Source: Escherichia coli (lineage in GTDB: Bacteria; Pseudomonadota; Gammaproteobacteria; Enterobacterales; Enterobacteriaceae). Taken from it: DNA of 284 nucleotides. The position numbers and the translations under genes were made by a program. The stretch lies in assembly GCF_003334385.1 (NCBI RefSeq), contig NZ_QOWN01000214.1; one strand, 5' to 3'. Shown here piece after piece: positions 1 through 284 of this stretch; position 1 is the first letter of the stretch, and each line of letters starts with the position of its first letter. The notes below the pieces were generated by a model. The model was not told where the DNA came from. It ran no database searches and saw only the letters and a program-made list of their open reading frames with translations.

Positions 1-284
1 TGTCTGTTCGGCCCGGCCTTACTGGCTGGCTATATCACCGAACGCATAACCCGGTTGTTCCATATTCGCTGGCTGGCAGGCGTATTTCTGACGATTGCCG
101 GAATGATCATCAGCTTCATGTGGGGACTTGATGGTAAACATATCGCGCTGGAGGCTCACACCTTTGACTCTGTGAAATTTATTCTGACCACCGCTCTCGC
201 CGGTGGTCTGCTGGCTGTTCCCCTGCAGATCAAAAACATTCAGCAGAACGGGATCACACCAGAAGATATCAGCAAGGAAATTAA
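1..284 (+). CDS. Internal fragment of a gene for a predicted integral membrane protein (possible transporter or permease; family not identified). Partial at both ends; reading frame phase 1, last complete codon at 280-282.
   Basis: Seen in sequence: frame +1 is open for all 94 codons, while + frames 2 and 3 have stops at 47-49 (taa) and 129-131 (tga). The translation has one ~20-residue hydrophobic segment (WLAGVFLTIAGMIISFMWGL, codons 24-43), a second of ~16 residues (FILTTALAGGLLAVPL, codons 60-75), and the tail of another at the 5' edge (CLFGPALLAGYI). A short basic loop (TERITRLFHIR) between the first two fits the positive-inside rule for a cytoplasmic loop. Codon usage is strongly CTG-biased for Leu (9 of 13), typical of highly used enterobacterial codons. 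Inference: membrane protein; the exact family would need a homology search. Confidence 0.7.

Follow-up and report, generated by a model that had tools for sequence, protein, structure and literature searches.

The GATC sites of the Escherichia coli yeeR coding sequence compared with the Dam/OxyR switch of agn43

Introduction

The Escherichia coli genome contains ~19,120 copies of GATC, the substrate of the Dam methylase, in 4.64 Mb. At oriC, where the density is many times that of the background, 11 of these fall within about 245 bp. SeqA binds hemimethylated GATC in pairs whose members are separated by no more than about three helical turns.

Among the described systems closest to the sequence considered here is the Dam/OxyR switch of agn43 (flu). 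The genes agn43, yeeR and irmA form a single OxyR-repressed transcription unit, the control region of which lies upstream of agn43 (PMC4807369, PMC3764049). In strain MG1655, yeeR is disrupted by a large deletion (PMC4807369).

Here we consider three GATC sites, one of them inside an 8-bp palindrome, in a stretch of E. coli DNA of 284 bp, the whole of which we call the window. The sites were first picked out in a reading of the sequence alone (hereafter the sequence-only reading). We compare them with the host background, with other alleles of the same gene and with the switch upstream of agn43.

Results and discussion

The window lies within yeeR

A megablast search of complete E. coli genomes identifies the window as codons 39-132 of yeeR from E. 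coli K-12, with 100% identity over 284/284 bp. Matches of 100% are found in many E. coli strains; in K-12 derivatives the gene is labelled yeeR, in other strains 'hypothetical protein'. A copy of the window is carried by 2208 of the 5426 complete E. coli genomes and is nearly always chromosomal. In the MG1655 locus (L001) the window occupies positions 8001-8284 and yeeR positions 7887-9419 on the plus strand, so that window base 1 is the first base of yeeR codon 39. Frame 1 of the plus strand is open throughout the 94 codons of the window, while both other plus-strand frames contain stops.

The neighbours of yeeR in MG1655, where it belongs to the CP4-44 island, are in order a GTPase pseudogene, agn43, yeeR itself, yeeS, yeeT, cbeA, cbtA and yeeW. 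Together with irmA, agn43 and yeeR make up a module that is part of E. coli genomic islands. The succession of agn43 (flu) and yeeR is kept in K-12, in three further loci (L002-L004) and in L010, a plasmid locus described below. Given the identity, the open frame and the position directly downstream of agn43, the window is yeeR coding sequence. A promoter and terminator scan of the window revealed no promoter-like, sigma-70-like or terminator-like site, and there was no Rfam match at E-values up to 1. The features of the window are as follows.

1 to 284, plus strand: yeeR codons 39-132, recognised by open frame 1 and identity to annotated yeeR; a hydrophobic, Ile-rich N-terminal segment of the uncharacterised YeeR
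103 to 110, unstranded: 8-bp palindrome ATGATCAT, from codons ATG ATC AT(C), Met-Ile-Ile
105 to 108, unstranded: GATC site 1, at the junction of ATG and ATC (Met-Ile), codons 73-74
223 to 228, unstranded: CTGCAG (PstI), a chance 6-bp palindrome, the last G of which is the first base of GATC site 2
228 to 231, unstranded: GATC site 2, at the junction of CAG and ATC (Gln-Ile), codons 114-115
252 to 255, unstranded: GATC site 3, at the junction of GGG and ATC (Gly-Ile), codons 122-123
265 to 270, unstranded: GATATC (EcoRV), a chance 6-bp palindrome from codons GAA GAT ATC
In NZ_CP032667.1 (MG1655) the GATC sites lie at 1808372-1808375, 1808249-1808252 and 1808225-1808228

The three GATC sites were recovered exactly where the sequence-only reading had placed them, with no additional copy on either strand, and the palindrome and the EcoRV site also proved to be correctly located. 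The PstI site reported there is indeed present, but at 223-228 rather than at 224-229.

The count of GATC sites is not unusual

The number of GATC sites was set against chance in several ways. From mononucleotide composition 1.09 sites are expected per window, in agreement with the figure of roughly one in the sequence-only reading, and three are observed. Shuffling the window with dinucleotides preserved raises the mean to 1.60, and 39 of 200 such shuffles contain at least three. As a genomic background we took three unrelated 50-kb stretches from elsewhere in the MG1655 record, 150 kb in total. These hold 686 GATC, that is 4.57/kb or 1.30 per 284 bp, and their 284-bp windows contain at least three sites in 14.2% of cases and at least four in 5%, with a maximum of 10. 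A Poisson estimate from the genome-wide frequency of ~19,120 in 4.64 Mb gives a similar probability, 0.11, of at least three sites per window. Finally, holding the YeeR protein fixed and permuting synonymous codons within yeeR (5000 trials) yields a mean of 1.45 GATC in the window, and at least three in 13% of trials.

Three GATC in 284 bp therefore represent no enrichment and fall within the normal K-12 range. The sequence-only reading had itself found the excess statistically uncompelling and had proposed comparison with the density in the host genome; that comparison bears out its caution. In particular, a GATC density far above background, as expected of a SeqA sequestration cluster, is not found in the window.

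At the level of the whole gene, yeeR carries a mild surplus of GATC: its 1533 bp contain 12 sites (7.8/kb), where the background has 4.6/kb. Counts of at least 12 are nevertheless seen in 8% of background windows as long as yeeR and in 7% of the codon reshuffles. Inside the island, here the 16-kb locus, the window is among the top 6.5% of windows by GATC count. The remaining 14.7 kb of L001, which include agn43 and IS elements, are GATC-poor, with 22 sites (1.5/kb).

Codon origin of the sites and palindromes

Each of the three GATC sites starts at codon position 3, in the form NNG followed by ATC, with ATC coding for Ile. Ile accounts for 13 of the 94 residues encoded by the window (13.8%), as against 6.7% of the whole of YeeR. 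Its codons there are ATC in seven cases, ATT in five and ATA in one, and three of the seven ATC codons follow a codon that ends in G. ATC is also the most used Ile codon across yeeR, and nine of the 12 GATC sites in K-12 yeeR share the NNG-ATC origin. The view of the sequence-only reading, that the sites are incidental to coding sequence, is thus upheld, since the window lies wholly within the yeeR ORF and every GATC in it is NNG-ATC.

The origin of the sites is therefore mechanical. In a very Ile-rich segment in which ATC is the commonest Ile codon, three ATC happen to fall after a codon ending in G (ATG, CAG and GGG), so generating GATC. The same codons also account for ATGATCAT and for the recognition sites of PstI and EcoRV, which are chance by-products. 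Numerically the palindromes are unremarkable: ATGATCAT is the sole perfect 8-bp palindrome of the window, where ~0.8 per 284 bp is expected from the surrounding 16-kb locus, and palindromes of 6 bp number four, with 4.4 expected. The ATGATCAT stretch alone showed no fold (-0.3 kcal/mol, z = +1.2).

Alternatively, these recognition sites for PstI and EcoRV, with the BclI-type TGATCA within the palindrome, might be thought to mark an engineered or cloning junction, as several 6-bp palindromes fall within 170 bp. We find this barely credible, their number being no greater than expected. An engineered origin was in any case ruled out, as many wild E. coli isolates, taken from cattle, humans, pigs and birds, have a stretch 100% identical to the window in their natural chromosomes.

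We consider it almost certain that the three GATC are instead incidental codon-junction sites, with no roles beyond the generic ones common to all GATC. These would be as a substrate for Dam, as a nicking site for MutH and in transient SeqA binding after replication. The gene dam is annotated in every one of the 5426 complete genomes of E. coli, among them the MG1655 record containing the window, so that the three sites are presumably methylated in the same way as GATC elsewhere. Absence of Dam from the host, which the sequence-only reading had named as grounds for discarding its GATC observation, does not apply: dam is present and the sites are thus only generic Dam substrates.

Conservation among alleles

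The K-12 allele was compared with six others, two of them ~99.6% identical to it and four ~94% identical. Both ~99.6% alleles, from strain STEC411 and from a Klebsiella pneumoniae IncF plasmid, keep all three GATC sites. Among the seven alleles site 1 is absent only from strain H240, where the sequence is ATGATTAT through a synonymous change of ATC to ATT. The other two sites are missing from all four ~94% alleles: site 2 reads GATA there, again synonymously (ATC to ATA), and site 3 reads GCTC, replacing Ile with Leu. H240, itself a ~94% allele, consequently has none of the three window sites left. The PstI site is also gone from the ~94% alleles, which have GTGCAG in its place.

Both classes of allele are common: among E. 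coli genomes, 1780 records have a best match of at least 99% identity and 319 have one of 90-95%. As judged from these alignments, the window GATC sites are not conserved among diverged alleles. A tblastn search of plasmids with the window peptide yielded no distant homologues from which deeper conservation could be gauged; it found seven near-identical copies, mostly from mislabelled chromosomes. Several of the PLSDB 'plasmid' records with yeeR measure 1.0-4.9 Mb and are typed non-mobilizable. They are evidently mislabelled chromosomes or chromosome fragments, and plasmid counts for yeeR are inflated by them.

The allele comparison bears on the possibility that the sites at 228 and 252 are a selected SeqA-binding or sequestration site, affecting the timing of local replication or transcription. 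Their spacing of 24 bp does fit the reach of SeqA. However, such pairs are commonplace, as 16.7% of the gaps between adjacent GATC in the 150-kb K-12 background are of 31 bp or less, and both members of this one are absent from the ~94% alleles. On both counts any SeqA binding at 228/252 would be generic rather than selected, and we regard a selected site as very improbable.

A narrower variant is that the two extra GATC of the K-12-type allele, 24 bp apart, have an allele-specific Dam or SeqA effect on agn43-yeeR transcription. If true, this might, for example, take the form of a transient post-replication pausing that modulates expression of the downstream yeeS and toxin-antitoxin genes, and would be of modest interest. 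We hold this to be even less probable than a selected SeqA site.

The agn43 switch as an internal control

The genuine Dam/OxyR switch of agn43 is found some 3.5 kb upstream from the window, with GATC at L001 positions 4425, 4444 and 4457 (element 4425-4460). It is non-coding, overlaps the OxyR site and precedes the start codon of agn43/cah by 190-253 bp. In all six loci compared (L001-L005 and L010) the GATC spacing of 19 and 13 bp is identical, although the intervening bases diverge substantially. The switch is thus invariant while the window sites are lost in the same alleles, which indicates that selection preserves the functional GATC of this element and not those of the window. Invariant switch and decaying coding sites, found side by side in the same alleles, make a handy internal control for similar GATC findings.

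Characteristics of an agn43-type element were accordingly looked for in the window. Its GATC sites are not clustered within a single regulator footprint (~40-50 bp); they do not have a non-coding location at or near a promoter, being inside the yeeR ORF; and neither sites nor spacing are conserved, the ~94% alleles keeping one of the three or none. Elements of this type also have GATC that stay heritably unmethylated in a fraction of the population, a state that none of the papers found describes for yeeR.

These observations weigh on the idea that the window sites form a second, intragenic Dam-sensitive element, at which Dam would face competition from a regulator, OxyR or Lrp for example, as at agn43 or pap, so controlling yeeR or downstream genes. 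Such an element would have some attraction in an operon famous for Dam/OxyR phase variation and in a host that has dam. Against it stand the spacing, 123 and 24 bp as opposed to 19 and 13 bp at the real switch, a coding location that lacks promoter-like hexamers, and a GATC count within chance. The common ~94% alleles furthermore lack two of the three sites and H240 lacks them all, whereas the real switch does not vary at these loci. A literature search combining yeeR and GATC brought up no paper that links yeeR to GATC or Dam; a methylation review matched but does not have yeeR in its main text. We judge an intragenic switch to be as improbable as a selected SeqA site.

The GATC sites of the window do not amount to a regulatory or structural unit. 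Their apparent clustering is no real feature; yeeR itself and the true Dam switch of the locus are both already known.

Other features of yeeR and its loci

Some further observations were made on yeeR and its surroundings. The K-12 YeeR protein (510 aa; L001 7887-9419) corresponds, with 95% identity, to the N-terminal 507 residues of an 838-aa protein that other E. coli have (L003 4887-7403). Compared with those loci, K-12 is without irmA, the 3' third of yeeR and the genes for DUF905, DUF932 and antirestriction proteins, and yeeR runs directly into yeeS. This truncation agrees with the MG1655 deletion noted previously (PMC4807369).

The full-length, 838-aa YeeR has no significant match in Pfam, and searches of NCBIfam and of PDB sequences found nothing. 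It matches the PADLOC candidate-defence model PDC-M09B only weakly, with E-values of 4e-5 (residues 576-731) and 4e-4 (residues 434-499), and a PHROG tape-measure family likewise (E = 1e-3). Full-length YeeR, a widespread protein co-transcribed with agn43, thus has no recognisable domain apart from the weak PADLOC matches.

Within the window, positions 186-208 comprise a perfect 8-bp inverted repeat, GACCACCG/CGGTGGTC, with a spacer of 7 nt. As RNA the hairpin would have a folding energy of -14.5 kcal/mol with z = -4.2, a score to be read in the knowledge that the region was chosen after the fact. The repeat arises from Thr-Thr codons (ACC ACC) opposite Gly-Gly codons (GGT GGT). Since one pair is broken by G203C in the ~94% alleles, the hairpin is probably incidental.

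Two of the loci deserve mention. L010 is from the K. pneumoniae plasmid ps01 (NZ_CP094480.1 137000-145281), which is conjugative and of type IncFIB/IncFII. It holds the whole module of GTPase, cah/agn43, full-length yeeR, irmA, DUF905 and DUF932 genes. The 99.6% identity of its window stretch to the K-12 allele suggests that transfer from one genus to another was recent. In L005 (4887-5376; E. coli NIPH17_0036), yeeR ends after ~170 bp, and the window is represented by its first 56 bases alone. The gene breaks off next to a tRNA-Ser gene and the ghrA-csg region, at what looks like an island boundary or a deletion endpoint.

Comparison with known systems

The lead provided by the three sites can be closed: the apparent cluster amounts to codon noise within a gene already known, and the Dam-controlled element upstream has been well characterised. 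This is most easily appreciated by placing the window beside the systems that it might be taken to resemble.

With the clusters at oriC and at the dnaA promoter, the window shares the GATC motif and one pair within the reach of SeqA. Its density differs, however: oriC is far denser, whereas the window has three sites in 284 bp, a count reached by 14% of background windows.

The likeness to the agn43 (flu) switch is closer, both having three GATC, a common operon and a common host Dam methylase. The switch, however, fits its three sites within 36 bp, unlike the window sites with their gaps of 123 and 24 bp, and it is non-coding with invariant spacing, whereas those of the window are found within codons and disappear in sister alleles.

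It is the ordinary GATC sites of E. coli that the window matches in every respect considered, namely density, coding origin and lack of conservation. Its count falls within the central 86% of K-12 windows, and nothing distinguishes its three sites from ordinary ones.
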